A stretch of 51,293 nt of DNA, the filler included, from Circinaria calcarea (lineage: Eukaryota): NCBI GenBank assembly GCA_051942165.1. It is 3 parts of 3 records of this genome, joined end to end, with 100 filler letters (N's around TTAATTAATTAA, not from the genome) between each part and the next. Parts side by side here need not be neighbours in the genome. Positions count along the whole stretch, not along the records: positions 17,139 to 34,166 come from JAVECS010000289.1; 2 more parts are not named here. One strand, written 5' to 3'. Under the pieces are notes generated by a model. That model was not told where the DNA came from. It ran no database searches and saw only the letters and a program-made list of their open reading frames with translations. Shown here piece by piece: positions 6,899-29,375 of the stretch. A program made the position numbers and the translations under genes. Each line of letters opens with the position of its first letter. Positions within the stretch are counted from its first letter, which is position 1.

Positions 6899-7243
6899 AT
6901 TGGAGTGACGGAATTGGCAATAAGTTCTGCTCAGTTGGCTTGGACACGTATGACGTGGAATAATAAGATATAATCTGCGCATTGAGACTTGAGACGACTG
7001 CAGCCCCATCAATAAGGCAGAGTAAGAGAACGAACTGTGTTTAGATTGCACGTAAACGCAGATTTGTGGCTGAATGTGGGGGGTCTCAGTTACACAGCAC
7101 TATATCTAAGACCAGGGAACATTGCACATAACCCCGTTCAGGCGCTGCTCTTCTGCTCTTTCTCGAACCATCCTCTATCGAACAACGACGATACAATAGG
7201 AAAACAAGAACACGGTCGATACCAGCGCTCCACTGTTCAAGCG

Positions 7244-10200
7244 ATGGACGATGACAGTTATGGAATTACTATACTCCATCAACCCGAAAAGGATACTCGA
7301 ATAGTGCTTGAGTAATGCAATACGACCTCGGTTGTATTAATTATTATAACTGATTTTCTTCCGCAGTCTTGTAGCAATACATGGCCTGAATGGTCATGCC
7401 CTGCAAACATGGACCCACAAACAAACCAGGACAATGTGGCTTCGGGACTTACTTCCTGAATCTCTACCTAACGTTCGGATTATGACCTATGGGTATAACG
7501 CTAAGTTTCGAAATTTTACTGGGCATCAGGATTTAAGAAGCATTTCAATGAAGCTTCTTACAGAGCTTGTAGATCTTAGGAGAACAGCAGAGGTATAGTG
7601 ACTATCTTACGACATTAACAACTTTAATTAAGTTTAACAGACCTTGTGGAAATAGGAGATACGTCGACCGGTGATATTTGTTTGCCATAGCCTTGGTGGG
7701 ATTGTTGCGAAGAAGGTTTATTAGATATCGAAGTTCTGTATTATTATTCGCATATACTTACTCATATATTCAGGCGCTGTTGCTCGGCTGTCCCGAGGAG
7801 CAAACCAAAGTCCAACAAGCAGTATACGGAATCGTATTTCTTGGTATGGTTTGGGAGATAGCAAACAGACGCGTTCGCAGTGTTAACACTAAAACAGGAA
7901 CACCACATAACGGTAGTAGTATTGCTACTTGTGGGAAATTGGTCGCAAATATTGTTGCAGCTTGTTCGCCTGTTAGTCCTGCTACGATGATACTTGGAGC
8001 GCTTCGGAAAGATTCTACAGTTCTCTTTGAAATCACTGAAGATTTTGTTGAGAAGACATCAAGGCTGCAGTTGGTCTCATTTTTTGAAATGGAGATGACG
8101 AATTTCGGGTTTTTCAGAAAAATGTTAAGTTCTTCTTCTGGAGAATAGCTTACTCCCTAATCTCTATTACAGATTGTTGAGCATCGTTCCGCCATATTAA
8201 ATGTGCCCAGTGAAATCGTTATAGGACAGAACGCTGATCATCGGGATCTCGTGAGGTTTTCATCCCTGCATGATCGCAACTTCCGTCCGCTACTCTCGAG
8301 GCTTAAAAAGTTCAGGGATGATATCAATGACAAAGATATTGCCTCGCCTTATATTCACATAGGAATCCATGCGCTCCAGTTGGAAGGTACGTGCAAAAGA
8401 CCGGTTCTTGTATTTGTTGATACCAATAGTTCGAAATGCAGGCAATGCAATGCTTTTTGATATCCCCAACTCACCCTGCAATGTATTTCGTGGTAGAGAA
8501 GATCTCCTAATCAAACTGGACAAACATTTTAACCCATTGGGTTCAGAAAGTTACGGCCAGCTTACATTTGCTATCTGCGGTCTAGGTATACCCACTATCG
8601 TATTAACCGGTCTTTGCTAATCGATCTTAGGAGGATCGGGGAAGACTCAAGCAGCCTTGCAATATGCTATTCGGAACCGCGCCAGATATACATCTGGCGT
8701 GTGGTTTTTCAACGCTGACTCTACTGCAACTCTAATTGCAGACTTTGAACGGATATCTGGCATATTGAGGTTGGGGCATGATTCAAACAAGGTCGCTGCT
8801 ACGAAGAGATGGTTATCTAAAGAAGAAAACTCGAGATGGCTTCTGATTTTTGATAACGCTGATGACCTAGACTCTGTACGCATCTCGAAATACCTTCCGG
8901 CAGTCCCCTGGGGACATGTTATTATAACGAGCCGTGATCAAGCCGCAATTGGTAATGTGGGCAAAGAGGGTTATTTAATGGGTAGGCTCAAACAAGAAGA
9001 AGCTCTGGCAGTCTTACTCGAAAAGGCTGGCATTGGGAAGCCTACTGTTGAAGAGTTTGAAAAAGCACGGGAAATCGTGGAGCTCTTGGGGTGCCTACCC
9101 TTAGCAGTTGACCAAGGGGGTGCTTTCATTAGAGCCAGGCGGAAAACTTTAGCAGATTACCACCGCCTCTTTGAGGCGCAACAACGCGAAGTTCTGACAT
9201 TCAAGCCTCGGCTAGCGGAGTACGACAAGACGGTTTTGACAGCTTGGGAAGTCAACTTCAAACAGGTCGAGCGTGATTCAGAGGCAGCGTCCAACTTACT
9301 GCTCTTATTTTGCTTCCTTGACGCTGGGGATATACCTGAAACAATGCTTTCCCGCGGATGCTCATCTCAAAACCGCTGGGATTGCCAGGGCGAGATATCA
9401 AAAGCTACAGCAGCAGAAGGCGGCTTAGATCCAGATGTTATCGATCTCGTGATGAACGAGATGCGTTTTGACGCCGCTATTGAAAAGCTCCTATCATTTT
9501 CACTAATTCAACTCCAAATAAATGCTAACGGGTTGAGGAGTTTTGGACTTCATCCCCTGGTACAGTACTCTGCCTCCCAGCGTGTACCAACAACCATTCA
9601 AAACAGGTGGAGGCTTCAGGCGATTCTGCTAGTTTGTCACGCCTTTCCCAGGGAGAAGTACCTTGAGCCTATGTAAGTCATTCAAGACTCTAAATGCTGA
9701 TGACAACACTAAATCTCTTATGGCAAGTTATGGAGATATAGGGAGGTCGCAACTCCCACATGTCCACCGCGTACTAAAGGAGTATGACAAGCTCACGACT
9801 CTGAACCCAATGGTCCAGTCTGTTAGGCGCGAAGTTGCGTCAATGCTATTAGCAGCCTCTAGATTCTCAGATACATCCTGGAAACTTCACGCAATCAATC
9901 GAGTTAAGGATCTCTTACAGGGTGATTCCGATTGCTATATGCACGCATGGGCAGTACATCGGGAAAGTGCTTTATTGCGAATGTTTGGCAACCCAAAGCA
10001 GTCTAATCAGGCGCTGGAGACCTTTATTCATGGAACAGTATTCCCAGGTCATGATGTGGGGCTAGAATCGGATCCAAAATGGAACGCTCAACGTGGAGGC
10101 CTGGTTGTTTCATTCGCGGAGAATCTGATTCAGGACGGCGACTTAACCCGCGCCAAGAACGAACTACTAGAATGGGAGCCAATATATCCAAAATTCCCTT

Positions 10201-10934
10201 CAACACTGGAGAGCCTGGTGCTACGAAGCAGAAATGTAGCTTTAGGTAAAATCTTGAGATGTGAGGGCCATTTTAGTGATGCATTATCTTATCTTACGGA
10301 TGTTCTCGGAGAAAGCGCATACGACCAATCCTACGAAGGCACTGGTGAGCGCAGACTCTTGCTCTGCAACATCGCAGATCTCTACTGCGAGCTAGACCAG
10401 CCAACCAGTGCCCAAGAAATTCTGCAGCTGGAATTAAAAGAAATGAGTGAGGGAGAATGCAAGAACGTCAGCAGTGGAAGGCGTGTCCAACTTTCACTGA
10501 TAGAAAGTTTGCTTCGACTTCGTATGTTCGACAAGGCAGAAGAGTCTTCCTGGAACCTTGAACCCGCTTATGAAGCCATTTCCAACCCCGACGCCCTCAC
10601 CAGCATTAGTCATTTTCGGCTGTGGACTGGCTTAGCGAGGATCTCACACTTAACATGCCGCTGGGAGGAAGCTCTTCCCCGTTGGAGACGTGCGTTGAAG
10701 ATCCTAGAGGATCGCAAGTGGGTACCGAGTTATAATTCCGGGATAGTACGCTTCTCCATTTCGCATGTTTTGTATAAACTGCAGGATTTCCAAGAAAGCT
10801 CTGCGATGATGGAGAAGGCGAAGATAGACTTGGATAGCGAGGGACGCAAGTTCTGGATCGTCAGCCTGGGCTCTTATTGGTATGATTACATTACAGCGCA
10901 AGAGATGCCCGAGATCCAGAATGTCAAGAGGTAG
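7244..10934 (+). CDS. Fungal NLR-like protein: SesB-like alpha/beta-hydrolase + NB-ARC + TPR-like repeats
   Basis: Spliced N-terminus DLVAIHGLNG, WLRDLLP, RIMTYGY, FVCHSLGG, GTPHNGS, ADHRDL; NB-ARC FRGRE, GL|GGSGKT (Walker A split by an intron), LLIFDNAD, VIITSR, GCLPLA, LHPLVQ; helical TPR-like C-terminal exon up to 10934. Confidence 0.88.
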
Positions 10935-11738
10935 AGAGAGGTGTTTGCAATGATTCCTCCGTTTCATTGTATTATTCGGGGTCCGACAGCATATACCACC
11001 TTGGTCTTTTCTCTATTTAGTTCAGGGGACCAGAATACGTTGCATCCAAATTACTTTGTACTCAGCCTGGTGATAACTACTGGTAGCCGGAGTTCGGCTT
11101 GAACTCAGTGACGCAGCTGAGGTTGACCACCAAGTAGTTGGGGGGAAGTCGCCGGGGGGAAGTCCTCCGGTTTTCTTAAAGTAATTATCCAGTAGTGAAA
11201 CCAAAATTCAGCGTTACATGCATAGTGGAGGAGTCCAATTTCGATGTCGCGGTTAATTTAACACTTTACTATGCGCATCACTACCTATGTAAGTCACTTG
11301 ATGCTTGTAATCTGTATATATCTTGGTGGGCATTACATATAAAATGTACAGGGCATCAGCCACGGAAGTACGTGCAAAGGCTTTTAATTCAGAGATTATG
11401 TTATATTGAAATTTATTTTCTTGGTAAATTACTCTAAAAAAAACCAAGCGACTCCCCCCCAGTGTCTGGGGTTGTTGGGGTTGACCACCTTCTGCTTACA
11501 GTCGGAGCGGTATAGAAGCTTCCATTGTTATCGGGTGAGCATGAGATCTCTACGGATGTCTTACTGTGGAAGGAGGTGCTACATATTCTATGCTGTCTGC
11601 TTGCTACCTTCCTAATCCAATGGTCCGAGGATTCAACTATTTCCACCATACGGCACTAGCACTCGATCATATAAAGAACATGTTTCTGGTGGATTTTTTC
11701 AATTTTCCTTTGGCTTGAACCCTTCTCTCCTCGCAAGC

Positions 11739-12711
11739 ATGTCCGCTCTCAAAGTTCCTGAAGGTCTCGTTGATTTCTCAGTGCCTGGTGCGGGAAAACC
11801 ATGTCAGACGTGGTACAAAGTCGTCGGCGACCTCCAGTCCGGCACCCGTCCCCTTGTTTGTCTTCATGGGGGACCAGGCTGCAGTCACCATTACTTGCTA
11901 AGTATAGCTGATCTAACCTCGTTGTACGGGATTCCAACCATTTTCTACGACCAGATCGGCAATGCATCCTCCACCCACCTTCCGGAGAAGAACGGAGACG
12001 CCTCATTCTGGACGATAGAGCTCTTCCTCGACGAACTTGACAATCTGCTTTCCAAACTGGGGGTGCAGGATGACTATGATCTATTAGGACAGTCTTGGGG
12101 AGGCATGCTGGGAGCATGTCATGCCGCCCGTCAACCGACGGGGCTGAAGAGACTTATCCTTGCGGACTCGCCATCTGATATGCGTTTATTCGTGGAGGCT
12201 GCGAACCTGCTTCGAACCAGGCTACCCCAAGATGTGCAGGATGCCTTGAACAAGCACGAAACAGATGGAACGACGGACAGCGAAGAGTACGAAGCGGCCG
12301 TCGAAGTATTCTACTCTCGTCATCTGTGCCGCTTGAACCCCATGCCCGAGGAGCTGGTTACAAGCTTGGAGTGGATCAAAAAGGACCCTACCGTATACTT
12401 GACCATGTACATCTACCCCTAGCTCCTCCCTGTCAACTTACTGAACACAGAACAGGAACGGACCGTCAGAGTTTCACGTCGTAGGTACGCTGAAAGATTG
12501 GGATATCGACGACGACGCGCACAAGATCAATGCCCGAACGCTGCTTATCAACGGTCGCTACGACGAAGCGCAGGACAGCACCGTCGAGCCATTCTTCCGG
12601 GAGATACCCAAAGTGAAGTGGGTGACGTTTGCTGAATCAAGCCATGTACCGCAGTGGGAAGAAAGGGAGCGGTTTATGGAGATTGTTGGCAATTTCTTGC
12701 GAGCTAAATGA
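11739..12711 (+). CDS. Proline iminopeptidase / L-amino-acid amidase (peptidase S33)
   Basis: HGGPG, YDQIG, nucleophile GQSWGG; intron 12407-12455 joins PTVYLTM|NGPSEF; INGRYDE, SSHVPQWEE; stop TGA 12709-12711. Confidence 0.92.
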
Positions 12712-12828
12712 TATGTTTTCGTTATGTATCTCAATCTAGCATCAAGCCTCTTGATCCACAGGGTGAGGTTGGTTGTACCTGGTGTCAGTAAATCTATATT
12801 TCAAAGGGGTTGAAGGGAATGCATCCTC

Positions 12829-12851
12829 CCGGCTCACCGGCTCACCGGCTC
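12829..12851. repeat. Tandem repeat (CCGGCTCA) x ~3
   Basis: ccggctcaccggctcaccggctc seen directly. Confidence 0.7.
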
Positions 12852-13651
12852 CCCCGAGCAACTGTACAGCCACATCTTACCCGCCTCTTGGATTGTATGA
12901 CCCTACCCACGAGACGATGCTGGGGAAATACGAGGATCTTATTACACGAGTTGACATTACGAAGCTGCTCGGGTGGCATCGGAAGTGCGACAGCTCTCAT
13001 GACGGAAGTGCTGGCAATCCATTCTGGAAGAGCGTTCCAGATTCTTACCGAGTTACTTAGTAGATAGGTCCGACCGGAGGCTTACCTCCCACTGCTCGTA
13101 ATCGTTGCCGTTGATGCTTGGCAATAGTTTTGCATTCGCTTAGCGGCCTATCACAGCTCTCGAAATCCCGAAAAGGGTTAGTCTGTACGCTTGCTTTCAG
13201 CATCCCTTGTCACTTGTACCTTTTCTCTACCACTCCTCATAGAACGTTACGAACTTTACGATCCCGAAGTAAACCGTACTAACTCGACGGCGCACGAGAT
13301 TGACCTCAGTCAGTCAGACCCTCGGTAACTTTCCACTTCATGGTAGGAGCTGTCAGCTTCAGGGAAATGGAAGGCCGTCATGGGCTGGGAATCCCAATCG
13401 GGACATGTGGGCATGCTCTACATCTCCGGCGCTCTAAGCTACTAGACTTTAGTTTATAGAAGAACTGGGTGCCCTACGCGCTTTCTTCTTGCTTTTGTTC
13501 TTCTCCGCATCAACTTTAACGCATCTTTATTCCTTGGAGTGCTCTCGGTACAATTGGAGTATCCCCATTCTAAAAGTCACCGTCCACTGCTTCACATTCC
13601 CTTACGCATAGACGCCTCCCGGGAATCCGTCTCAAGGAAGACACAGTCATT

Positions 13652-14786
13652 ATGCGATTCCAAACCCTTTTCGCTGCTGTGTTTCTCGCCTCCCAAGGAG
13701 TGCTCAGCTCCCCAATTAACGAACCTGAGCTTGTAGCCAGAAAACAAACCCCAGAACAATGCTCGGGGTTTGTCAAGATCATCAAAGTCCTCAAATCGAA
13801 AAAAGCCACTCCCTTCTGTTCCTCATACCTATCAATCACGACCAAGACAGTAACCAGTGTCGTGTAAGTAGGGTTGCCCTCTTCGACGCAAATACGGCGC
13901 TAATATTTAAGCAGCTCAACTACATCGACCTTAACCATAACAACCGGCACAGCTTCGTGAGTTAGGCTCACTCTTTGGCTAGATATCAATGCTCATACTA
14001 TGCCTAGTACGTCTATCGTCTTCTTACCCGGAAATCCTCCAGCCAAAATTCGTCGCTCAGAAAGCAATACAGCCTCCGAGAATGAAGTGCAATGCCCTGA
14101 AGAATGCTCGGGTTCATCCTCGGGTTTTCCACCTTATCTGACGGCTTTTCCCACTGCAGCTATCTCTAGTGCCTGCTCCTGCTTGAATCTGCCAAGTCCC
14201 ACAGCTACCTTAACGTCCACATCTACCACCTCAACAACGACGACGGTAAGATCAACTAGCTCTTGACCAATTCAAATGAGCTGACCTACTTTCTTCAATG
14301 CTACAGGTGGCCCCTCCTAGAGCAACTAAGACAGTCTACCGTAAGTACAACTCAAAAAGCTCTCCTTGGGAACAATTGATTTGGTTCAAGTTAGCGACCC
14401 TCAGCAAGCCTAGCTAACTCTTATCACCAGCATGTGCCAACGGCGGAACCGCTGGTTATGGTAAAATCTCACCAGGCCCCAATATTGGCGCTACATCGAA
14501 CGCCCTCTACGGCGTAGGAACCACGGGAGACTCCCTCGAGGGCTGCTGTAATCTCTGCTACTTTGGCGCCCAGTACGGCGTCACGGACTGCATCCAAGCA
14601 TTCTATTACTCCTACCAAGGCTGTGTTGTTCAGACTGCCGCTGTGACGGGTTCTGGCGTCAGTGTTAGCCCCGTCTGCCCGGCCGGTATTATCAATGGTT
14701 TGAGCTATGCACCGGACTTTGATCCGCCTTTTCGCAGTACGGGGGATATTGCGGGACCTTGCGGACAGGCATATACGAACTTTTAA
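13652..14786 (+). CDS. Secreted Cys/Thr-rich protein of unknown function, 5 exons
   Basis: Signal-peptide-like MRFQTLFAAVFLASQGVLSS; GT-AG introns 13864-13914, 13957-14007, 14246-14306 and 14341-14430 splice in frame to TAA 14784-14786; motifs ATPFCSSYL, ISSACSCL and C-terminal CCNLC...C...C...C...GPCG. Confidence 0.85.
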
Positions 14787-15362
14787 GAGGAGGTTTTGGA
14801 GACGGGCAAGTTTTGTTCAATGGCATTGAAGATAAGCAATCCTAGGAAGATTTGATCTTATAGTAAACTCATTGTACCAAGTCTAAACTTTTGATCCACC
14901 CTTACCCTAGTTATCAACAAAATATAGAATTATCAAAAAACACAATCCAATCCAAAACATATCCGACCTGGTACATGCCAGATTCCTCTCCACGCAAAAT
15001 CCGAAATCAAACAAAGTAGCCTCAAATACCGGAATAGAACCCATATCCCTCAAGCGGATGCGTCAATCTTGATTCCCCTTGGAACTCGTCATAATATCCT
15101 CACGGGAGTCTCCATCTACTGTGGCGTAATGCTCCGAATCAAATGTAAGTTGGATACGGTATTTGATACTTGACGGTTGAAAGGCGAAACGAAGTTAATG
15201 ACTTGATAGGGCTGATGCAAGGTGAAAAGTTCCCGCTTTTAGCAAGCGGCTTAAGCCTGGTCAAAATGCTAAGCATTAGAACTGTAGAAATAATCATGGC
15301 ATAGCCTGCCCATAGAAATTTTGATATTCCTGGACCACTCAGTCAGAAGATAGCAAAGCCAG

Positions 15363-17038
15363 ATGCAATCCACATCTTGCAGAACACTTGCGCGCAGTGC
15401 GATCAAAGTAAGGAAGCTGCGAAAAGGCTTTCCGCAACAATGTTGCAGGAGACTTGCAACCGTTGTTGAACAAGCACCCAAGGTATTACACGAGGGTAAA
15501 CCCATCAGGGAGCAGGTGCTTATCACAGTATAGGATCCAGCAGAATTCGATCAAATCACCACACTACCAAATGGGGTCCGAGTGGCCACCGAAGCCCTCC
15601 CAGGCCCTTTCTCCGGAATCGGTGTATATGTGGATGCAGGATCACGATACGAAAATGAAGAGTTGCGTGGGGTAAGCCACATAATAGATCGCCTAGCATT
15701 CAAGGTAGGAAGAGACCACACAGGAGCGATTAGCGGTGTTGACTAATGTAACCCATAGTCAACCAGCGCCAGGACGTCGGATGAGATGCTCGAGTCCTTG
15801 GAATCCCTCGGCGGCAACATACAGTGCGCATCGTCACGAGAATCGCTGATGTATCAGTCTGCAAGCTTTAACTCCGCCGTTCCTACCACTCTTGGTTTGC
15901 TTGCAGAGACAATACGAAACCCCTTGATTACAGATCTCGAAGTCCAGCAGCAGCTAGAAACGGCCGAGTATGAGATTGGAGAGATATGGTCGAAGCCGGA
16001 GCTCATACTGCCAGAACTCGTTCATATGGCCGCATACAAGGATAACACCTTAGGAAACCCCCTTCTGTGCCCGCAGGAGCGTTTACAGTTCATCAATAAA
16101 AGCGTCGTGGAAAAGTACCGAGAGACGTTCTTTAAACCAGAGAGACTCGTCGTGGCTTTTGCAGGCGTTGACCATGAGCAGGCTCTAAAGCTCACCGAGA
16201 AATTTTTTGGCGATATGCAAAACCACATAGCGGCCCAGTTGCTTGACATCGATTCCGAATCGTCTTCTATCAGTTCATCGACCGGGAGCGTTTTTTCATC
16301 ACCACCGTCCACACCGTCCTCGTATAGCTCACCGTCCCCTTCACCACCGCAATCCTCGAAGCTACTTTCCAAAATACCATTCTTCAAGAACTTGTCTACC
16401 TCTGCACCCAAACACGCATCCGTTTCCTCACTCGACCCCTCGTCTCTACAATCCTCTTCTGTACTCGATCTTACGCTTCCTGCTCGCTATACTGGCGGAT
16501 TCCTATCACTCCCCGCCATTCCACCACCGCCGAACCCTGCCCTGCCTCGTCTTTCACACATTCATCTTGCCTTTGAAGCACTTCCTATATCTTCTGAAGA
16601 TATATATGCCCTTGCAACACTTCAGACACTACTCGGTGGTGGAGGGTCGTTTAGTGCTGGTGGCCCTGGGAAGGGCATGTATTCCCGATTATACACCAAT
16701 GTCCTAAACCAGCACGGCTGGGTAGAATCATGTGTCGCCTTCAATCACTCTTATATGGACTCGGGGCTTTTTGGAATTAGCGCGAGCTGTAGCCCTACGA
16801 AAGTCGCACAAATGCTGGAAGTCATGTGCCGGGAGCTACAGAATTTGACGCTCGACACCGGCTTTTCTGCCCTCCAGGCCGGAGAAGTCAACCGGGCCAA
16901 GAACCAGCTCCGAAGTAGCCTGTTAATGAACCTCGAAAGTCGAATGGTGGAGTTGGAAGACCTGGGAAGGCAGGTGCAGGTTCATGGACGGAAAGTAGGG
17001 GTCAAGGAGATGTGCCGCAAGATCGAGGCGTTGACGGT
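15363..17038 (+). CDS. MAS2: Mitochondrial processing peptidase alpha subunit, 3' end lost at contig end
   Basis: Basic presequence, [30 protein letters not shown] (no HxxEH), glycine loop [37 protein letters not shown]. Confidence 0.95.
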
Positions 17039-17138
17039 NNNNNNNNNNNNNNNNNNNNNNNNNNNNNNNNNNNNNNNNNNNNTTAATTAATTAANNNNNN
17101 NNNNNNNNNNNNNNNNNNNNNNNNNNNNNNNNNNNNNN
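17039..17138. other. Artificial contig spacer N44-TTAATTAATTAA-N44
   Basis: 100-nt spacer with a six-frame stop linker at 17083-17094; genes on both sides are truncated. Confidence 0.97.
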
Positions 17139-17482
17139 TGAGTTTGAGTAAGGCGATGAGGTATCTTGTGAATCCGAATCACAAATCTGTTCACGAAGAT
17201 GAAGGAGTATATTCGATCACGGATTTCGGGAGGAAGGCGAAGGAACGGTGAGGCCGAGGCATGCCCTGGAGCAAATGAGACTTGAGATAAATTGGAACGG
17301 GTCATTGGCAGTGGTCGCGGTCGATCAGCATATCTCTTGCGGAAGGCCCTCTCTTCCGGCGTCGGCCTAGGATGGAGACGACGAAAGAGCTTGTATGTAT
17401 AAACAACAGGGAGCCATATCGGCGCAAACGGACAGATGATGCAAACAATGCAAAGATTGCAGCACGATTCTGACCTTGTCAT
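17139..17482 (-). CDS. F-box-like fungal protein, 3' end lost at contig end
   Basis: Hydrophobic N-terminus followed by SPFLRLPPEIRDRIYSFIF (LP.EIR..IY F-box-like motif). Confidence 0.6.
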
Positions 17483-19252
17483 CTTCAGTAGGTATCGTAT
17501 AGACTTTGTAGGTATCAAGGCGTTCGTTTTATTCTTGCAGGACTTCTAATGCTTCTGGGATCGATGGAAACCCAGCATCGGCTACGTCTGCGTGCAAATC
17601 AAGAGAAGTCCAAGAACAACTTCGCTCGAAGGAAGGTAATATGAGAATGTTATGGACCAGGCTGATACCAGAAGACAGTTACATGACTTATGCGGTGTCG
17701 ATGGACAGCGCGAGGCTGATTTGGAACAAAATGCCGTACACGCCAAATTGACAAGTACCGGCACTTTGCTTGGATCACTAACGAGGGCTGCTGGTAACTA
17801 AGATATGCCTTCCGAAGCAATGATCCCACTTTGGGTAGAGTGATGATCGAGGAATAAGCCTCGTTGAGTCTATCGTGTAGGTAGCCCAATAGTATGTAAC
17901 ACGGGTCTTTCTTTACCCGGGATGACCGGGCTAATGACTAAGCTACCTCGGCATCCTATCTGTATTTTGGAGAAAGTCAACCGACAAATAGAAGCAAGCA
18001 GAACAGTCTCTACGTCTTCTAATGTGGCGGATAGACCCATGAGTATCTTTTTTGGGCTTAAATTGCTATGTGGGAAACTTGTAGTTCTCCTCTGAGAATA
18101 CTGGGGATAAATAACAAAAGCTTACATCCGGAGCATAATATCACTGCTTGTTTCGCTTAATGCAGAAGGCAACCGGCCACGATGCGAGACGAAAGAAGAG
18201 GCAACAACGACGACAAGCATAAAGAGAGACAATATCTTGCTCGTATCTTGCCACGGGTAGATCCTCTTATTTCCTCCAGCGCCACTATCATCTCTTGTTG
18301 TGCCACCTATCCCATCCCCACTCATAATTTTCAGGATCCGATGTTGCTAGCCGACTCTCTTATAGACCTCCTCGGCGCTTGTGCGTCTCCAGAGACCAAG
18401 ATAATCACACGGTAAGCAAGACATGCCATCGGTCTTGGATTTAATGAAGATAGTCTGTAAGAATGTTTTGATGATAATACACCAGCCATCAAGATTCACA
18501 ATCAGACTACCATCTAGAGCTATCCTTCCGGACAATTAAAGTATGAGGATAGTCGAGTCTCTCACCTAACTTCCATCTCAAACATGACCTTCGATGATTT
18601 AGGAGACATATCTCTGTCCAGCGACCAAGACAAGGATGATGGGGCTTCTACTAATTATGAATTACCACATAAGCGTTGACATTGATCAAATTACCTCTGG
18701 CATTCTGGACGCTCTCACCTTGAATGCAAACAACATTACGCTGATGGAGACCATAGACACTGCCCTGAGCGCGTCAAGGCACTCTAACTTAGTGGCAGTT
18801 CCCATAACTGCCCGTTCCGGACGAATCTGGAGATGTGGGCACACGGGAAACACGTAAATCGGCAACCTAGCTTATAGCCATATGTCAGCTTGCCAGTAGT
18901 CATAACCGTCTAGTCCAGTTGTTGGACCTTGGCAGTCCAGTCCAGCCGGCACCCCCTTCCTCTCTTCTACCACCCCCAGCAAGCAACTCCGGACTTTGAC
19001 TACCAGTGTGGTCTCGGGGGTAGACTGTCAGTACAATCCGTATTATCAGCGCATCCTCTATAAATATAAAGTGGCAAATTGCCTCGGTAATCAACCCGAG
19101 GGGGCCAAAGGAGGCGAGGCGGAAGTGGTATCCTACTAAACCTTGTACTGGACTGGCAGTGCACGATCCCCCGCTGCCAGACTACAAGCGGCGCTGCCCA
19201 AGGATTACTTACAACCTAATTTAAAACCCTTTGGTACCCTCTGGATTTTTAA

Positions 19253-20094
19253 ATGCTCTGTCCTGGAGAATCGTTTTTTCTCCGCGAGATATTTCTAGTC
19301 TACGATAGACAACTCAAGAAACACCCCATTGCTAAATTAACGATCCCGTTGTCTGACGGGACTGCATTTCTTAAGTCTCACCCCTTCTTCTCTGACATCC
19401 GTGTCAAATGCCTTATCTGCTGTTTGACTGAAGGCTCACGCGGCATATAACCGAACATCATAACAAGATTGACTTTTTGTGCCCGTGGCCCGGATGCTAC
19501 GATATCCTGGAAGGAGAAGACCAAGTCAGAGAATATGTTCGGATAATACACGAGCTTTGTGTATATGTATGTCCGGCTAATGGATGCTATATGCATTCTC
19601 CCTCGAATCTCGCAACGGTGCAGCAGTTACGGAAATCTCACGACATCATCGATAAGGACGACCAGATATTTCCGAAAGTCATCGAAACATTGCAAATGAT
19701 GAAACAGCCTCGGGAACAAAAGTATTCAAATAAATGGAACTGGTGTAATGAGCTGATCGCCTGGAGGAAGGTTTTCGGGGTCTGGAAATGCCCTAAATGA
19801 GCACATCGGGTTTTCAATGAGGAAGCTGGCTACGTTGATTGCTGATATATTACTAGCGTTAATCTTATCGGTCTCCGCTGAACAGTCTATAGCAAAACAC
19901 CATCCAGCCACTTGTGTCGACGACCATGCTGCCAGAATATATATGATGCTCATCTAGAATCCTTACCCATTAACACCTCTCGCGCAAAGTGCGTTGATGG
20001 CTTCGAAGCAAACCGGTGCGGTTTCTGCTCTACTCACGATCCTCGGTGTGGATTGTATAAGGCAAGGATACTTCATCACTGGCAAGGCTCTTAA
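19253..20094 (+). pseudogene. Decayed gene: C2H2-type zinc fingers + His-Cys-box (I-PpoI-type His-Me) endonuclease domain
   Basis: One frame 19432-20094 read through TGA stops gives RLTRHITEHH, CPWPGC-x12-Y-x4-H, CPANGC-x12-Q-x4-H and SHLCRRPCCQNIYDAHLESLPINTSRAKC...CSTHDPRC. KCLIC lies in the neighbouring frame just upstream (frameshift). Confidence 0.72.
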
Positions 20095-20367
20095 CTCACA
20101 ACTAGACGATGTTCTTAATACAACAGCGGGAACTCGCACTAAGCTACAACCCACGAGCGGAGATGTGGATTCAAGTATTGTTCGTCATACAATAAGCTTG
20201 TATCATGAACAAACGTCATTTCAGCTGTTTATTTTTACTAATATATATCCGTTCTGATGCAAGCTATTTGTCTTAGAATATCTATTTATAAACTTAAATA
20301 CTGATCTCGAAGATCAAACCTAATTTTATCTAAACCGTGATTCAACAGACCCACGAGATTTCTAACA

Positions 20368-20763
20368 ATGGCTTATTACGGCATTAAGAAACGGAGGATA
20401 CTTGCCCAGGCCCGAACAATTAAACGCCATAACGATCATTCAAGTCTCCCCTCGAACGATGTTTTCGTTGACGAATGTATCTATAGGTCTGGCAAACGTG
20501 CTTAGATATCCTTCAAGTTATATCAAGCAGATCGTATAGCCACTACCAAACCTGGGAAAACGGCGTACCTCATTATTGAAGACAAGCAGTGGACGGTGGA
20601 AAATATAGTCGAACCACCGGGAAAATTTCAGTACCACTTGAGCGATTCCTCCGGGAATCAGATGAAAAGGGAATATATCTTATTTAACGAAAAACACGCC
20701 ACATCAACCGGAACAATGGATATCCGTAAGCTCGTCCAGCTTGCGCAGAACCGAAACCTGTGA
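20368..20763 (+). pseudogene. ~130-codon frame with one internal TAG, unknown product
   Basis: ATG 20368 to TGA 20761-20763, interrupted only by TAG 20503-20505. Confidence 0.3.
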
Positions 20764-21109
20764 TCACAGAAAATGGCTGGCAGTCGAGACAAAAAAACAA
20801 AAATGTAAAGTATTTAGATTTATGCGGAATCAGGAGACAGAGATTATCCTCGCTAAATAACGTTAAAATCCAGAAAAAGTTTTATTCCCTGAAAATTTGA
20901 TCAACGGAATCGCCGCCGAGTGTGCCGTTATTGACGTGGAGGAGGCGGCTCGATTCATCTTCGCAAGAGATTACCCCGGCCACACCGGTGGGTAGACAGC
21001 ATATAATAGTTGAAAACTATTATTGGCTGCCTTTTGTAGATCGGTGGCAGGTTGTCATGGGTTAAGGAGAAAGCATGGCTTCGCCAGGATCGCGCCTGCA
21101 CGTCTACTA

Positions 21110-22320
21110 GCATATAGCATTTAAGTATGAAGAGCGCATAGCAAACAAATAACTATATAACACTTTATATACTCCATACTGATAGTTCTGAATGATTTTA
21201 TAAAAGTAGTTTAACTAATTGCCCAAGAACCTACGTAAGCTTAACTCACGTCGATGATACCGGACTAGTTAACCGCTTAGATCGAAAAATGGGACGATTA
21301 ATAGGCCGGGTAATCTAAGAAGGGTAAAGCAAAGCTAGAAAGAAATATAATTTTATACCCGCGGATAATTAAAGCCAAGAAAAGAACTGATAAGCAGTAA
21401 TACCGGGAAAATATAACAGACGACGAAGAAATTAATATTAATAATTGGCACGAGAAGGACGTGGAACGGTGAAACAAGAATTTTATAAATCGGTGGTTAC
21501 GGAACTCAACTTCCACGGAAATTATATAGTGTTCAACGAGAAGCCTATTGTACCGGGTTAAGCCTTAAGGCCAACGCCCTTCGAGAACCCGGGGGGGATT
21601 TATCACGGGGGTCCCGCGGAGCTCTCCGTGGTGAGGAAGGTGGAAATAGAACTCTGTATATTAGAAACGACATGAGCGGTCCTCTTGATAAATTCGACTC
21701 GGTATTCAAGCGAGGGGGATCAACCCTAGTTGTTACGGTCAGCCCCCTGCGTCGATCAATGGCTGGGAGAATTAGACAGAAATTTTGAACTGGTAGTTAT
21801 ATATTTACGTGGCTAAAGTCTTAGAGTCAACAATTCTTACTAGGAGTACCGTATTATATGTTTTTCTACCTCAAGGACAAGTCTATCACGGCAACCTAGC
21901 TTTTTCGGTACGACGTGATTGTAAACACGTACTGGTTTTGTCCAGCGCCAGCACGCTTTCATTCCTCAAGAATAAAGCTATGAGTTTAGATATGCAGATA
22001 GCAAATACAAAGGTATTCCACCTCCACCTCTTAGCAACAAAATATACATTCAGCCGCTATCAGCACCAGATGATTTCCAATCTAGGAATTTATAAAAAAG
22101 CGATACGGAATGGTGGTCGGTCCCGAAAGCAGAGAGGGTATCAATCCGTTCTTCTCTTATCAGTATATTGCTGCTACAGAAAAAAAATATAAAAGTTGAT
22201 TAAATGTAGTTAGCACTTTTGATAGGCCCCCCGTAGTAGGAATATAATCCTGATATTCCGAAAAATAGCATCATACCGACTCCATTTTATCCAGCTTATA
22301 TACGTTATGCGCTAGTGTCA
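21110..22320. mobile_element. AT/TpA-rich degenerate repeat relic (RIP-like); class unassigned
   Basis: Locally AT- and TpA-rich with broken frames; purine run GAGGGGGAT shortly before an LTR-like TGTTACGG at 21731; no matching LTR end found. Boundaries approximate. Confidence 0.3.
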
Positions 22321-22599
22321 ATTGGCAAGGCGCTGTTCTGCCATAGCCATGCGAATCCCGCGGAGCCCCTGATATTGGCCGCCGAGCAGAATGGCTATCT
22401 GCCGCCGGATTCACCGCGATGTGTGGGTCGCCCGGATTACAGTTTCGGGGGCTTTGGGATCCTGAATTGCGGAGGCCAATAGCAGCGTATACATGATTAC
22501 GTGTCTTAAATCAGAATGCAGTCAGTTTCAGAGTCTTGTTCGACTGGGAAGAGAAAGGGCTCATGAAATTGTCTTCTCGCAGTAAATCTTTGACATGTT

Positions 22600-24097
22600 C
22601 TACTGTTCACTAAAACCTAAGCTGAATCGCAAGCTTGCCTCCCAGGGCAAACCTGCGAGACCTTTGCCGATGAGAACAAGTTTACCTCTATCATCTTTGG
22701 TCGTTTCTGGCGTGTCTTTAGGTCCTTTGTCTAGTCCCCTATCCAGATCGGTGATTTCAAAGACCTCCCGCACCCCTTGGACCATCTTCACTGCTCCAGA
22801 GTCCAAACGTATTCGACCTTTGAGGCGGTGGATCAAAGGTTTCGGTGTGCTAATCGGAATCGTCAGTCCACTGGGGAGACTTAGGTTACACTCCCATAAT
22901 AGCTCTCTGAGCCATACGTCAAGCATGAGGAGCTTCGTATCTGTAAGGACTGGAACGGGAATGCTGAGTGTCGAAATACTCTTGGACGAGATGTCAGTGG
23001 AACCGGCAGAAAATAGAAGAAATATTCCTAATGCAACCGGCGAACTAGCATACCTCGTCATGATGGCTGTGCCCTTTTTCTGAGGTCTCCAACGACCCAA
23101 TGCCGTCATAGGCATGGAGATCAAGTACTAAACCTTCCAACTTCGGTATCCTACTGTACTCCGTTACGTGTACGGTGGCTAAGCTGTTGATACCCTGCAC
23201 TCGATCCTTGACTATTTGGAGGTCCTCGGCAGATATAGTGTCGCCTTTGTTTAGGACAATGACATCTGCATGCGAGATTTGCAGATGGGCTATCGTTACC
23301 TGAGGGCCGTGGTGCTCTTCACTTACCAACAAGGAGCCTTCCTTTGGTGTTTCCTCGAGGCTCAAGATAATATTCTTCGCATCTACAAGCGTTACTATTC
23401 CGTCCAGGTAAATGGTGCTTCCGAGGCCGTCATCAACCCAGAACAGAGGTGCGATGTTTCCCGGATCAGCTAGGCCGGACGTCTCGAGAAGGATGTAATC
23501 AAAAGCTCCACGACGCTCCATAAGGGATTCAATGGCATTTACGCCTGAGTCTCTGGTTTGACATTTAGAACATGATAGGGTTTCCTAGTGGAGAAATCTT
23601 AGTCGAGACATACTTAACGGAGCAGCAAATACATCCATTTGCGAGTTCAAGCCATTCTTCTACTTCTTGGCCATTTTGATTAACTGTCAATGCTTTCTCA
23701 ATATCCGCGGCTTTCGATAGATAAGCCCGTGTGTTTTGTATGGCTCAACGAGCAACTCACAATCACCAAACTCTGTTTCAACATTAGTCAAATCCGTAGG
23801 GTTATTACCTAAACTATGGTGATTACAAGCCATTCAGTATAACAGCAATCTTCTTTCCATGTTGCTCTTTGAGGATATAGTTCATCAAAGTGGTCTTGCC
23901 AGCTCCCAAGTAGCCTACACCCTCATGAGTGAATTGATCTTTGTGGTGCAGTAGGGTTCACTACCAGTGACAATGGTAATGGGAACTTTGACCAGACTTG
24001 CACCATCTAGTGATGTTTCTGTGGTCTGTTTAATAGGGCTCGCTAAAGACGTAGCCGTGGCCACCAATTCGGGCGGACTGTCTTCGTCAAATTCCAT
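22600..24097 (-). CDS. ZNG1: CobW/COG0523 zinc metallochaperone GTPase
   Basis: [30 protein letters not shown] (CxCC), [16 protein letters not shown]-terminal HRLKG and LVLIGK; multi-exon. Confidence 0.9.
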
Positions 24098-24435
24098 ACT
24101 TGCAAATTATCAGACTTCTTCGAGACAACCATGTAGTCATGCCATACGGTCGTCGTACAGCAGGTCGTCCACCGTTCAACTCTCCAAGGTCACTTTTCGC
24201 GACTATGGCGCGTCAGTCGGATCGAGAAAATAGACCGCGTTTGGAACTGGGCACACTTGACAGCCGCGCGGCTAATCAACCTGGGCAATTAGCCGTCACT
24301 GATTGGTTTATTGACAGCATCCATGGCCCCGATGCACTCGGTCTTGACTTTTCCTCTAGTTCCGCAGAGGAGCTCGATACCCCCCGCAGTATCTACACCC
24401 TCGAGGACTTGAGGGCGCAACAGGACCGTTTTGCT

Positions 24436-25948
24436 ATGTCATCAGCTCTTGCGCCTGCCGCCGGAAGCGTCTCTCCTTCCAATTCACCGCGTTTGCCAAG
24501 TCCGCCGCCATTTCCAGAAGTGCAGCTGGGTCCTAAGTCTCCTAATCCAGGCAGCGCGAGCAGGTCCACTTTGCAAGATATCAATGACGCGACTTTTCTT
24601 GATGGTGGAGCCACGAGGAGGATACGCCCGGGAACAAAGGCGGTGGACATGGCCTCTGGGCCTCCCTTAATTCCCCTTTCCGAGGTAAAGTCTTCAATCG
24701 ATGGATATCTCATTCTTGAAGAGTAAAGCTGCATAACGGTGCGGCTAATACTTGCTGCAGCTCGATTCGCCATTTCAACTGCAAGAACACCTCAAAGCTC
24801 TCTATTACCACCATACCAAATCCGACACTAATCAAACAACCATACCTATTACCCATGAGACTGCGCTGATTATCGCCACTCCTCCTGAAAACGTTGATCG
24901 ATCTTTGTGGTTGTACGAACTATGTCGCTTCCTGGTTCAGAAGGCCAACAACCTCATTGTGGCATTTTTCTGCGACTCCCCTCCCTGCTCTGCTCAGACT
25001 TGTCCCGAAATGCGAGCTTCGGAGTGGCAGTATCTCTGTGCCGTACACGATCCACCGAAATCATGCTGTGCGATCGATTACTGCTGCCACACGCTCGATT
25101 GGGCTGCAAACATTCTCACCTCTCAGAAGCACTTTCCTAGCCGCCTGACTCTGGGAAGTGACGCTGCCGGAGGAAGCCAACAGAGCGTGAGGCAACTTGC
25201 AAACATATTCCGTCGAGTCTACCGCATGTTTGCTCATGCTTGGTTCCAGCATCGTCAGGTTTTCTGGAACGTTGAAGCCAACGAGGGGCTCTACATCTTC
25301 TTCAAAACGGTGTGCGACTTCTACAATCTAATCCCAGAGGAAAATTACACTGTACCACCAGAAGCCGAAGGCAGTAGTGCCGAGGAGAGGCAGACAGGCG
25401 AAGAGAAGGGACCGCACTCGGATCTTAGTGCAGGTGTCCGACACAGCAGTATCGTAGAAAAGCCCAAGGAAGAGACACATGATCATACAGAGGAAAGTGC
25501 AGAAGCGACAACCACAATTAGTACCGGCGCTACCACGCGGAGACATAAGCACACCCCGTCCACCGGCTCATTAGTCACAACGATCCTCGAAGGCGAAGAG
25601 GAAGAGTCAAGACCGACTCCTGAATCATCACTCCCTCCAACTCCCCAACAACAGATACATCAACCAGCACCTGAGCCATCCAAATTGTCCGCGTCACTCC
25701 CGTTTCGATTCGAATCCGGCGAGGTAGAGGAGAAGAGCGACGGAGATGATCTGCGCGGTCCCGCCCATGATGAACAGCATAAGCTCAAGGACGAGGGCAA
25801 TGAAGAAGAGAAGGCCTCTGAAAAGGTCGATACCCATGTTCCTGAGGATAAGGCAGACGCCAAGGCAGAACCACACGAGGTAGCGCAGGATGAAGCTGAG
25901 GGGCCGGAAGGTACGGAGAAGGAGTCAAACGTTGTAGGAGACGAATGA
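24436..25948 (+). CDS. mob-3: MOB4/phocein-type STRIPAK subunit (fungal MOB3)
   Basis: Intron 24685-24760 joins GPPLIPLSE|LDSPFQLQE; WLYELCRFL, TCPEMRASEWQYLCAVH, CCAIDYCCHTLD, FPSR, RRVYRMFAHAWFQH; acidic tail. Confidence 0.92.
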
Positions 25949-27120
25949 GCGGGTGTCCAGCACTAGGCGTTGTTTGCTCCCCTTGTGCAATTCTTCTGCG
26001 TCTTACGAGATACCCCCCAGATCGGAACTGGTCTGTTAGTTCGGAGGCAGGATTTGTTCTTGTTCACGATGAGATGTTCGATGCGATAAGTGCTGATAGA
26101 AATGGGAAAGGAACCCTTTGCACAACGAGATCTCCCGGCTTCTGGGATTTACATGAATTGAGCGACTGACAGGAGAAAAGAGTATATCTTACATAATCCT
26201 CCCCTGGCTTCATGTCATCTATTGCTCTCCGTGTCGCTCTCGCGAAGGATGATCGGCCGAGACAAGCTAGGAGACCATAAAGGGGGGTCCCATATTCTCC
26301 ATCTAACCCTCGAAACCGTTTCCAAGCTGTTCGTATACGGTGTATTCTAAACTCAACAGTCCCCCCCCCCTCCGGTGATGCCATCCCCCCTCCAATTTGA
26401 ACAATATCCACACTCCTCCATTTCACGCCCCCTGGATCCCGCAACGAGGGGAGGTCCTCGTTTCCCCAACTCCACGGATCTCTGTGGAGCTTCTTATTTT
26501 CCTAAATCATGTACCTGGATCATGTACAGAGAGAATGGAGCTACCTGGAGAGGGCACCTCCATGCAGGGGCTACTACGCGTGTGGTGGGTACGGAGTAGA
26601 CCCTCTGTACGAGTGGATCCGAACTCACACGGGTTTGTGTTTGTGTTGTGGCGATACGCGTGCTTTAGGGACCAAGGTTCAATGTTCACGGATTTGAATT
26701 GAATTTTTGTTCGTGATTCGGGTAGCTCCCCCCTTTTCCTTTTCTTTCTCCCTCGAATGCCAACGGTAATTGGTTTTCCCCCTTCGAAGGATAGGGCTTT
26801 TAAATTCTGCTTTCATCGAAAAGGAGGTTGGAAGAATCGTTGAGATGCGTGGTCTTTCGTTGGAGGCAACAACGTTCGAGTTTGTTATCCTGGCATTCAG
26901 ACGCCGTGCTAAGTTCTTGTCACTATCCGTCGATTTCACGATTTTCTTCTTTATATTAATCAGAGTCCGACCCTTTGAGAGATCAACGAACTAGGCTCAA
27001 AGCAAATTTCTAACGGGATGGGGGAAACTGGAAAATAGGCCTAGGGCGCTCGCGTTCGTGGTACCATGACGCTGGCCGAACACTAGAGCCGAGTGAAGAC
27101 GTAAGTCTAGCGCGGAAATC

Positions 27121-29045
27121 TCAATCGAGCTCTTCATAGTCTTGAAACGGCCAATACTTTTCAACGCAGAGTCTATCCTCATCATCCTCCGCTTCATCCA
27201 GCCATTCCTTTTTCAACCGCCGGTTCTCCTCCGCAACTTCCTCGTATGATTCGTTTCTGACCCATCCGTCCTGGCCCAGGTCGTCCAAGACGGAGCGCCA
27301 GTGTTTCAGTAGAATCGTAGCTGTGAACCAATTCTTTTCCGTGCGGTAAAACTCTTCTTCGTCCACTGTCGCGAACTTCACCGGGCATACGATTCTCTCG
27401 GAGGCACCAGACACGAACTGGCCCCAATTGGCGACGGCTCTGACGAGCGCTCCTTTCAAAGTTATCGTGTTGCCACTCCATTGCCGCCCAGCTCTATCAA
27501 CCAAATGTTGGCGGATCGATAGGAGCGGATCACGAAGAGCACTGAGATGGGATTTGTTGTCTTTGCCGTTGAAAATCATGTATGAATAAAGTAGCATCCT
27601 CCGTCGATGAAGCTCCTCCGCCTGAAACTTCTCATGGGGGTTGAGAGACTGATAATTATCTGGGAGAGAAGGCTTTTCAAAGCCCTTTGGAGGTTCAGAG
27701 TCAGGGTTCTCGAATAGCGGTGGATTCCCCGCCGTCAGCAACAAAGGCAGAATAGTTGTGTATTGCCAGTCGATGATACATGAGACCTCACAAGATTCGG
27801 ACACAAAAATGTTAGTTGGGTTAAGATCTGTACTCCAGTCATTAAGAGAACATTAGAAAATAGTTTCCGGGATGGTTACCTGGGTGACGCAAAGTAGGTC
27901 GGTTTAGTGCATTGTCACGATCCCGCGGTAGGATATAAGGGCATATAGACAGATATTTGTCCAACAAATCGAGGTAGTTCTCGGGGTGGATCTCGCCCTT
28001 GAGAACAGTGTTATGGGGGAATTTATTCATTCGAGGCTTCCCAAACTTGCGGGTCCATTCCATCTCTCGCAAGCCGACTGAATGAAGATAGTCGCGCGGA
28101 TCACTCCCTGTTCACATGTGTGATCAGTAATTCATACGGTGAAATAGAGGAGAAAGACTAACAGGGCCCTCGATTCAAGTCAAGCTGTGCACGCTTGCCA
28201 CGCCAGAACATATAGTCGGTAGTCGGGCCAATGCAAAATCGACTTGCATCGCGGTTTTGGTCTGGCGTCTCACGTCTGTAGAGATCGGCTTGGAGGTGCA
28301 AAGGCAAGTCGCCCTTATAATACAAGCTACCATAGGAATCCAAAGAAAAAGAGAATAGTCTTCGCTCAATTTCAACGAAGCTTGTCACTAAACGCACTCT
28401 TTCCTTTGGTGTCAGACTATACCATCGCTCTTCCAGGGGCTCTCCCGAAGCCTTTTCCATAATAATATATTCTACCCCAACCGCATTATCTTTATCTGAG
28501 GACCAGGCGTAGACATGAGGAACAGGTACTCCATTCGAACGTAAAAAGTCCAATGTGGCAACTTCACTCTTTGTTGTCAAGTGCTCCGGAACCATAAGAG
28601 AATATAGAACCTTAGCAATAACCTCAAACCCGTCGTCCATGGTGAGAAGAAAAACTCTGTTAAAGCCACCCTCTGCAAGTTTCTTGATATCTGCAACGCA
28701 ATCTCGACCAAGGCATTTTGCAGTGATATTCTTGAGGGCTGTAACGTCGAATTCAACATGTCTCTCGGCTAGGCGAAGTCTCTCGTTGTAGAGGTAGCGA
28801 CCGGAGGTGTAGGTAAAAAGCTTTCCGTTTGGTTTCGAGCCTGTCGATGCAAGCATGATTGCTGTAGATTGATACCTCCTGAATGCATATGAGTCTAGGT
28901 ACTTAGGAATAACGGGGCCTGAGGCATGAGTGAAGTGGCTTGCAAAAGGATTGAGTCGCGTTGAGGAGCGAGCGAGAGTGAAGAGAGGTGTACAGGGAAT
29001 GGAAGGGGAAGCATAAGACAGTGTTTGATTAACGATTGTCGGCAT
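27121..29045 (-). CDS. APH/phosphotransferase family protein, Aim9-like (3 exons; start may be 28856)
   Basis: FTYTSGRYL, LAEGGFNRVFLL, SEVATLDFLR, EYIIMEKASG, RHP|DLNPTNIFV, IIDWQ, DGWV, terminal WPF. Confidence 0.85.
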
Positions 29046-29092
29046 AATGAGTTTACAGTCGGGTGGGGGGTTTTCTAGTCAAACCAAGTCTC

Positions 29093-29126
29093 CCACTTAG
29101 TATCGGTCCACTTAGTATCGGTCCAC
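29093..29126. repeat. 15-bp tandem repeat CCACTTAGTATCGGT x2.3
   Basis: Copies at 29093-29107 and 29108-29122 plus CCAC. Confidence 0.8.
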
Positions 29127-29375
29127 CGTAGTGATTCGCCTGTTTGACACGAGATTGCGCCCGAGGATTTCCTAAGAGGACAAGTATGCTTCCCTAGTAC
29201 GACGAGTATATGAGAGGAATAACACTTTGGTGGTACATTATGTAAGCTATAAGAAAGGTGAATCCGGTTCCATGCAGGAATATCCTTCATACTATTAACG
29301 CTTCATGAATCGAGAGGGATAAGCAAGTAGCACATCCGTACCAAACGCCCGAGATGAACAAAAAGAATAGGAGAC

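Follow-up and report, generated by a model that had tools for sequence, protein, structure and literature searches.

Can a His-Cys box endonuclease, a type of enzyme known almost only as a small protein of group I introns in nuclear ribosomal DNA (rDNA), also be found joined to zinc fingers elsewhere in a fungal genome, and would such a fusion be a selfish element or an ordinary host gene? This question is raised by a locus in a 51,293-nucleotide stretch of DNA from Circinaria calcarea (GenBank assembly GCA_051942165.1; hereafter the window, filler included), for which an initial annotation had proposed, at 19253..20094, a free-standing fusion of the two. We found a single decayed coding stretch on the plus strand, 19409-20094, that runs from three C2H2-type fingers through a linker to a His-Cys box (Table 1). 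Comparison with related proteins showed colinear homology of its fingers and box to a large fungal multi-domain protein family, of which the stretch is, very probably, a non-functional, 5'-truncated pseudogene fragment. The locus itself is functionless, and its value lies in pointing to the family and in giving evidence of the decay of a copy.

A broken reading frame joins three zinc fingers to a His-Cys box

Upon reading through its stops, the plus strand from 19396 to 20094 forms one frame, with TGA codons at 19429, 19798, 19843 and 19879 and a TAA at 20092. The two open reading frame (ORF) fragments 19477-19800 and 19912-20094, which had been taken for one frame broken by TGAs, indeed lie in the identical frame, with interrupting codons at 19798-19800, 19843-19845 and 19879-19881, while the fourth TGA (19429-19431) falls inside a frameshifted piece. 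The relic lies within the span that was originally proposed, but in the ORF starting at 19253 homology to the family begins only at ~19400.

A hidden Markov model (HMM) of 15 family members matched 19432-19683 in the six-frame translation with an independent E-value (i-E) of 3.3e-16, and tblastn of eight relatives against the window matched 19402-19806 at E 1e-10 to 6e-8, confirming the three degenerate C2H2-like fingers that had been described upstream of the box. An HMMER search of 1.84 billion representatives with the read-through translation yielded 43 matches at E<=1e-3 (best 2.1e-7), all of which pass through the finger region (query residues 12-90) and most of which are generic C2H2 proteins. 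Similarity to C2H2 finger arrays was significant in this library search, and the Pfam finger models all stayed below cut-off on the window itself; a word-indexed protein search with the same translation gave no match. The Cys2-His2 ligand set is incomplete in every one of the three fingers. In finger 1, 23 nucleotides separate the second Cys codon from the first His codon, compared to 39 nucleotides (13 codons) in the relatives, and this net loss of 16 nucleotides shifts the frame, such that the CxxC of finger 1 (19409-19420) falls in a different frame. In finger 2, the Tyr that had been noted in place of the expected His is encoded by TAT at 19534-19536, a position where all relatives have His, and in finger 3 a Gln at 19624-19626 replaces the first His.

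The frame closes with the motif quoted in the initial annotation, SHLCRRPCCQNIYDAHLESLPINTSRAKC-x8-C-x2-C-x2-H-DPRC, in which the box reads S-H-L-C-RRP-C-C-QNIYDAHLESLPI-N-TS-R-AK-C and is followed by C-x2-C-x2-H-x3-C. Counted from His 0 (19909-19911), the box places Ser at -1, Cys at +2 and +7, Asp at +12 (19945-19947), Asn at +21 (19972-19974), Arg at +24 and Cys at +27 (19990-19992), which bears out the I-PpoI spacing that had been given for it. Both the general-base His and the metal-binding Asn are kept at the I-PpoI spacing (H98 and N119, with their roles taken from the accessible part of PMC9587614). The set of eight Cys/His ligands for two zinc sites is incomplete, as had been observed for the +12 zinc-ligand His, which is Asp here; in addition, the N-terminal part expected to give the fourth ligand of zinc site 1 is deleted, and the second Cys/His cluster (zinc site 2) has a spacing that differs from that of the relatives.

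PF05551 (zf-His_Me_endon) was the sole family reported for the 63-residue box peptide, over profile positions 68-119 of 131. A nuclease-only HMM gave this peptide 10.7 bits, a score attained by 1 of 2000 composition-preserving shuffles, and the box ranked first among 2922 overlapping natural 69-residue windows taken from the six-frame translation of the whole 51 kb. The box furthermore stands in frame and in the right order, ~90 residues after the fingers, and its S-H-x-C...N-x2-R-x2-C offsets are identical in all complete relatives. These comparisons support its reading as a decayed His-Me domain of the I-PpoI type (PF05551) that kept the catalytic His and Asn.

That this copy is dead, as had been supposed, follows from the damage: a frameshifting 16-nucleotide loss, three in-frame TGAs, three lost zinc ligands, and a deletion of ~50 residues before the box, which removed the block Y-x-WWVLFLHQ-x-EG-x2-LDKFI-x4-LLG that is strongly conserved in relatives. 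No GATA-like tail was found in the relic, the frame ending at the TAA at 20092. We considered whether TGA might encode Trp as in a mitochondrial-type code and rejected this, as residues such as Thr/Ser or Asp/Glu, not Trp, occupy these positions in the relatives, and the flanking genes are of nuclear type. Repeat-induced point mutation (RIP) was likewise rejected as the cause of decay: the indices are normal over 19001-20000 (TpA/ApT 0.77; (CpA+TpG)/(ApC+GpT) 1.22), and ordinary mutation therefore accounts for the damage.

Table 1. Features of the relic, in positions of the window
Feature	Position	Strand	Basis or remark
Finger 1, Cys pair (KCLICC)	19409..19423	+	In the frame of ORF 19253-19450, unlike the rest of the relic; matches C-D/N-I-C-C/W of relatives
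Finger 1, core; frameshifted remnant holding TGA 19429-19431	19424..19443	+	Counted from the sequence against relatives; forms the 23 nucleotides jointly with the Cys codon 19421-19423
Finger 1, His pair (HITEHH)	19444..19461	+	Aligned to H-K-L-E-K-H in relatives
Finger 2 (CPWPGC...YVRIIH), first His ligand replaced by Tyr	19480..19551	+	Family HMM; best library matches E 2e-7
Finger 3 (CPANGC...QQLRKSH), first His ligand replaced by Gln	19570..19641	+	Alignment to relatives; family HMM
Linker plus N-terminal nuclease half, both decayed; TGAs 19798/19843/19879	19642..19905	+	Alignment; homology weak, not significant alone
His-Cys box relic, then C-x2-C-x2-H-x3-C	19906..20049	+	Spacing; PF05551; nuclease-only HMM
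Terminal TAA of the frame	20092..20094	+	Relatives continue into GATA-like fingers, absent here

The relatives are large proteins, the named ones from lichen-forming fungi

The search with the read-through translation yielded colinear relatives (P0009, P0042, P0041, P0006, P0020, P0025, P0033, P0007 and P0035) whose fingers share the unusual pattern F-x-C-x-WPGC...RIHE...C-P-x3-C-x-x-R-F and most of which carry S-H-K-C-H-W-x-x-C...H-L-E...N-x-D-R-x-x-C 140-150 residues past the fingers. Searching with a profile built on the nuclease regions of six relatives added seven more (P0046-P0052). The full-length members measure 968 (P0048), 996 (P0006), 1001 (P0045), 1141 (P0009) and 1301 (P0041) residues and share one order, namely a Lys/Glu/Ala-rich N-terminal region (coiled coil), an Ulp1/C48 domain, an acidic linker, three fingers, a conserved linker, the box domain, and one or more GATA-like units. 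The initial idea of a compact, free-standing gene resembling a zinc-finger nuclease (ZFN) therefore did not hold, as full-length relatives add a coiled coil, an Ulp1/SENP domain and GATA-like fingers, and the relic is 5'-truncated.

The Ulp1/C48 domain of the family reached up to 33 bits with Pfam PF02902, and the family profile matched SENP1 (E 8e-10), GLI fingers (1.4e-10) and WT1 (2.6e-9) among Protein Data Bank (PDB) sequences, with the relatives' fingers matching the DNA-bound fingers of GLI, WT1, YY1 and CTCF. The C-terminal GATA-like unit has the form G-P-C-x4-C...W...C-x2-C; in a model of P0049, such units superpose on GATA fingers (GATA1 Z 3.1, root-mean-square deviation (rmsd) 1.6, 32 residues). 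One to three of these units were seen in the tails of P0009, P0045 and P0048-P0052, while the tails of P0041 and P0047 carry repeated C-R-K-G-C-G...H-E units in their place, indicating a modular DNA-binding tail that varies among family members.

In 11 of the 13 relatives that bear a box, a single ORF encodes both the fingers and the nuclease, in line with the fusion originally suggested; the other two (P0046, P0052) are predicted proteins that start downstream of the fingers. Conservation within the box is high: all 13 have Cys +2 and Cys +7, 12 have His 0 (Gln in P0033), 12 have His +12 (Ala in P0006), and every relative in which this region is complete and unbroken has Asn +21, Arg +24 and Cys +27. 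P0047 has a 19-residue insert in the box after HLEFVR (residues ~290-308), and P0020 ends at the same point, suggesting that an intron at a position common to that subgroup was left unspliced or was mis-called. P0007 (Letrouitia subvulpina, 438 residues) has an Ulp1 domain, two ordinary C2H2 fingers and family fingers 2-3 and lacks the nuclease domain; its gene model may be truncated, or it may be a variant naturally free of the nuclease. P0035 is a degenerate member.

All four members with a named source (Usnea florida, Bacidia gigantensis, Xylographa soralifera and Letrouitia subvulpina) are lichen-forming Lecanoromycetes and are annotated as "hypothetical" or "uncharacterized" proteins; the others come from ENA/Logan assemblies. 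The relatives fall in singleton 90% clusters (once in a four-member cluster) found on one or two contigs, with up to six contigs for one sequence of the four-member cluster. A word-indexed search with P0009 residues 680-1010 matched only P0009 itself and P0045, and scans of JGI metagenomes with the nuclease profile (A1) and with P0048 returned no relative. In the ESM Atlas, P0009 662-1000 gave best values of 0.75-0.78 to HNH_3 and Endonuclease_7 phage clusters, which lie below a meaningful level and serve as leads only. Literature searches covering sources other than subscription journals and database annotations found no paper joining "His-Cys box" with "Ulp1", and "His-Cys box" combined with "lichen" gave no description of such a fusion, as judged by title or abstract start. 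Provisionally, the family thus represents a His-Cys box nuclease in a new architecture and setting that is apparently undescribed.

The box domain is probably of the I-PpoI type

PF05551 is not significant on the relic's own peptide, a result that was overturned by the relatives: two of the 13 reach the cut-off of 27 bits (P0049 27.9, P0050 27.4), seven more match at E<0.01 (25.4, 23.2, 22.7, 20.8, 18.5, 17.0 and 16.6 bits), and the remaining 4 of the 13 give no match. AlphaFold models were made of relatives only (P0049, mean predicted local distance difference test (pLDDT) 67.5; P0046, 58.0). With the P0049 model, Foldseek placed I-PpoI at ranks 1, 2, 3 and 5 (best E 0.011, probability 0.96), and VIA-align, which searched 48,161 representative PDB chains, placed I-PpoI (1a73_A) first with Z 5.3 and rmsd 4.2 over 104 residues. 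For P0046, I-PpoI took Foldseek ranks 1-4 (best E 0.35), and 1a73_A was again first in VIA-align with Z 4.5 and rmsd 4.3 over 103 residues, the next row standing at 3.1. Two further His-Me fingers, I-HmuI and the Smad MH1 domain, ranked lower in the structural lists. With modest scores and a poorly modelled second zinc site, the models point tentatively to an I-PpoI-like fold for the relatives' box domain, and we base the assignment to this type on the PF05551 matches, the identical spacing of ligands and catalytic residues, and the consistent top structural rank.

Like I-PpoI, the family shows the spacing S-H-x-C-x4-C-x4-H...N-x2-R-x2-C, for which we take the I-PpoI cysteines to be numbered C100, C105 and C125. 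Conserved residues of the I-PpoI group are given as S97, H98, H110, E114 and N119 in the portion of PMC9587614 that was available, and this list agrees with the family's Ser -1, His 0, His +12 and Asn +21. A classification of His-Me fingers lists the I-PpoI group as group 12, with 62 eukaryotic (fungal) sequences, and the sections of it at hand make no mention of fusions such as these (PMC5714182).

Several results weigh against reading the locus as a truncated family member with an I-PpoI-type box. The box peptide scores just 12.6 bits with PF05551 (E 0.16), far under the cut-off, and the 232-residue read-through translation 9.3 bits; the nuclease-only HMM gives the box only 3.8 bits on the long six-frame translation. 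A phmmer search of the box against PDB sequences found no I-PpoI, with chance rows only (E>0.7), profile A1 gave 0 matches against the same set, and the full family profile (A2) gave SENP and C2H2 proteins and no I-PpoI among the best 60 of 92 matches. In the structural comparisons, Z values of 4.5-5.3 are of a size often seen between unrelated folds, and pLDDT is low over the second zinc site in both models. At the locus, the homology of the 19642-19905 linker is weak, and the contig starts at 17139, just 2.26 kb upstream of the relic, such that the finding of no Ulp1 or coiled-coil remnant in 17139-19400 (tblastn of eight relatives; family HMM on six frames of 17139-34166; Pfam on the stop-masked six-frame translation of 17139-22600) spans barely the length that an intact N-terminus needs. 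All four read-through stops, moreover, are TGA, a bias that may be due to chance. Given the weak score of the box on the long translation, the case for it rests jointly on its rank, its exact spacing and its in-frame position behind the fingers.

Selfish element or host gene

The proposal that the relic descends from a selfish or mobile element found no direct support at the locus. No convincing terminal, direct or inverted repeats surround the relic (best pairs 14-27 nucleotides, 70-100% identity), no transposase, recombinase, reverse transcriptase or other Pfam domain was found in six frames of 17139-22600, and no second copy of the relic lies within the 51-kb window. We nevertheless lean slightly toward a selfish origin, because truncation or the loss of catalytic or ligand residues is seen in several members and because both non-finger modules are known as passengers of DNA transposons. 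Besides the relic, the decayed members are P0033 (His 0 to Gln), P0006 (His +12 to Ala), P0007 (no nuclease) and P0035; the passengers, as far as the accessible parts of the two sources show, are an I-PpoI-like nuclease on KolobokP (PMC9587614) and a C48 peptidase on oomycete Cryptons (PMC3212892). Weighing these signs against the apparently low copy number and against how well most members retain their catalytic residues, we put the chance that the family is, or recently was, selfish at just short of even.

A strong competitor is that the relic is what remains of an ordinary host gene specific to the lineage, such as one for a chromatin or repair factor linked to SUMO and carrying a nuclease, which was duplicated and then decayed with nothing mobile involved. 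The lack of repeats, of mobility domains and of a second copy, the singleton clusters on few contigs, the ordinary genes nearby and the catalytic residues kept in most relatives, as selection would give, all agree with it. Against it, the fragments and key-residue losses in P0033, P0006, P0007, P0035 and the relic resemble the decay cycle of homing endonucleases, although short contigs explain part of them, and the transposon associations of both modules fit a host gene less well. Overall, we regard a host-gene origin as a serious possibility that falls somewhat below even likelihood.

Other readings of the locus

A third reading, in which the locus is a working short gene whose intron removes the three TGAs to yield a small finger-plus-box protein, we consider very improbable. 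Five GT...AG candidates that preserve the frame do cover all three TGAs, one of them being 19745-19885 (141 nucleotides), with donor GTAATG and a CTRAY motif 43 nucleotides upstream of the acceptor. However, none of the five donors matches GTRAGT, which we take to be the usual fungal consensus, finger 1 is frameshifted, and the frame has no ATG from the TGA at 19429 up to finger 2. Splicing would mend neither the frameshift nor the replacement of three zinc ligands, and any such splice leaves no N-terminal half of the nuclease fold, which is strongly conserved in relatives.

That the box is instead a stray piece of a homing-endonuclease gene from an rDNA group I intron, lying beside unrelated zinc fingers, would accord with the classical location of His-Cys box genes in introns of nuclear rDNA (PMC9587614 and PMC5714182, in the parts available). 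We judge it extremely improbable. As had been reported, no ribosomal RNA or group I intron lies nearby: Rfam scans matched no family at gathering score in the 51 kb and neither kind of RNA at E<=1 in 17139-22600, where the only match was a chance one to sR18 (E 0.3), and the fingers and box are colinear within one ORF in 11 of the 13 relatives. No transfer RNA was found around the relic.

Chance resemblance of a Cys/His-rich ORF fragment to a His-Cys box, for which the PF05551 E-value of the relic and the single shuffle that attained its score would speak, is next to negligible, since the box is the best of the natural windows, follows in frame and in order after fingers that match the same family, and shares its offsets with all complete relatives.

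A putative nuclease guided by zinc fingers

How might an intact member work? In the ancestor of the relic, the C2H2 fingers and probably also the GATA-like fingers would place the protein on DNA. By analogy with I-PpoI, a beta-beta-alpha-metal site would then cut the DNA, with the box His as the general base that activates water and the Asn at +21 holding Mg2+, and two zinc sites would brace the nuclease fold. The Ulp1 domain, in turn, might strip SUMO from chromatin or repair factors near the site. Extending this scheme, intact relatives could be natural zinc-finger-guided nucleases, in which C2H2 and GATA-like fingers steer an I-PpoI-derived cutter and Ulp1 disarms SUMO-dependent repair or silencing at the break, with the family being a novel selfish, homing-like element (or its domesticated descendant) that escaped from the rDNA group I introns, which abound in lichen fungi, and the relic a spent copy from its cycle of invasion and decay. 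Taken as a whole, we consider this broader account unlikely.

Engineered ZFNs are C2H2 arrays fused to the FokI cleavage domain. The family likewise has its C2H2 fingers N-terminal to the nuclease in one polypeptide; in contrast to the FokI nuclease of the PD-D/ExK type, its nuclease is a His-Me finger, and Ulp1, coiled-coil and GATA-like modules are added. Because I-PpoI-type domains carry a sequence-reading beta-sheet of their own, the fingers, on this analogy, may add to the specificity and not supply all of it. If intact members cut at sites defined by the fingers, they would be useful for learning how DNA-binding modules work together with a nuclease that itself reads sequence.

The same chemistry as in I-PpoI is predicted for the family from its residues, with a His general base, an Asn-bound Mg2+ and a zinc-stabilised fold. 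Whereas I-PpoI is a stand-alone protein of ~160 residues, the family nuclease is one domain of a protein of 970-1300 residues with Ulp1, C2H2 and GATA-like fingers, and its second zinc site is laid out differently, as C-x10-C-x6-H-x-H-x-H-C. The setting differs as well, in that the I-PpoI type resides in rDNA group I introns and the relic lies outside both rDNA and such introns.

An escape from introns has been reported, within the literature searched, only for KolobokP of animals, and the KolobokP paper was the only one found for "I-PpoI-like". As with the family, KolobokP has an I-PpoI-type nuclease outside group I introns in nuclear DNA; it is described, in the accessible text, as an animal transposon with a DDD/E transposase, long terminal direct repeats and the nuclease in a separate ORF (PMC9587614), whereas no transposase or terminal repeats were seen at the relic and the family nuclease is fused to fingers and protease. 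In the oomycete elements CryptonF and CryptonS, too, a C48/Ulp1 peptidase is tied to DNA-manipulating element proteins; Cryptons use a tyrosine recombinase, according to the available part of the source (PMC3212892), and none was seen at the relic, the Ulp1 of the family being fused to fingers and nuclease. If our account is true, the lichen-fungal fusion would be a second, independent recruitment of this cutter and a natural counterpart of engineered ZFNs, and the role of a SUMO protease at a DNA break would then call for an explanation.

Surroundings of the relic

The two spacers at 17039-17138 and 34167-34266 are identical (44 N, TTAATTAATTAA, 44 N) and are probably artificial joins with stops in all six frames, which would divide the window into three contigs, 1-17038, 17139-34166 and 34267-51293. 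Synteny is not to be assumed across either spacer. With the joins artificial, the relic lies on a 17-kb piece (17139-34166), and the M16 peptidase gene that appears to be its neighbour belongs to another contig. Directly downstream of the relic, 20100-22500 is AT-richer and ORF-poor and shows RIP-like dinucleotide indices, especially over 21001-22000 (GC 0.41; TpA/ApT 1.2; (CpA+TpG)/(ApC+GpT) 0.78). Its six-frame translation gave no Pfam match, and the stretch may be a repeat that has decayed completely. A tblastn match of the Ulp1 region of P0007 at 20970-21104 (E 0.26) lies downstream of the relic without HMM or Pfam support and was dismissed as chance.

By its gene content (M16 peptidase, CobW, Mob1, NB-ARC/TPR, SNF2, NDUFA5 and an amino-acid permease), the window looks like nuclear DNA of a filamentous ascomycete. 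Two adjoining ORFs at 8657-10934 (+) contain NB-ARC, DUF7779 and TPR repeats and form an NLR-like gene, typical of filamentous fungi. An ORF on the minus strand at 17139-17518, cut by the contig join and without a Pfam match at E<=0.001, contains LRLPPEIRDRIYSF, which resembles the 2EXR/F-box-like motif common in ascomycete proteins.

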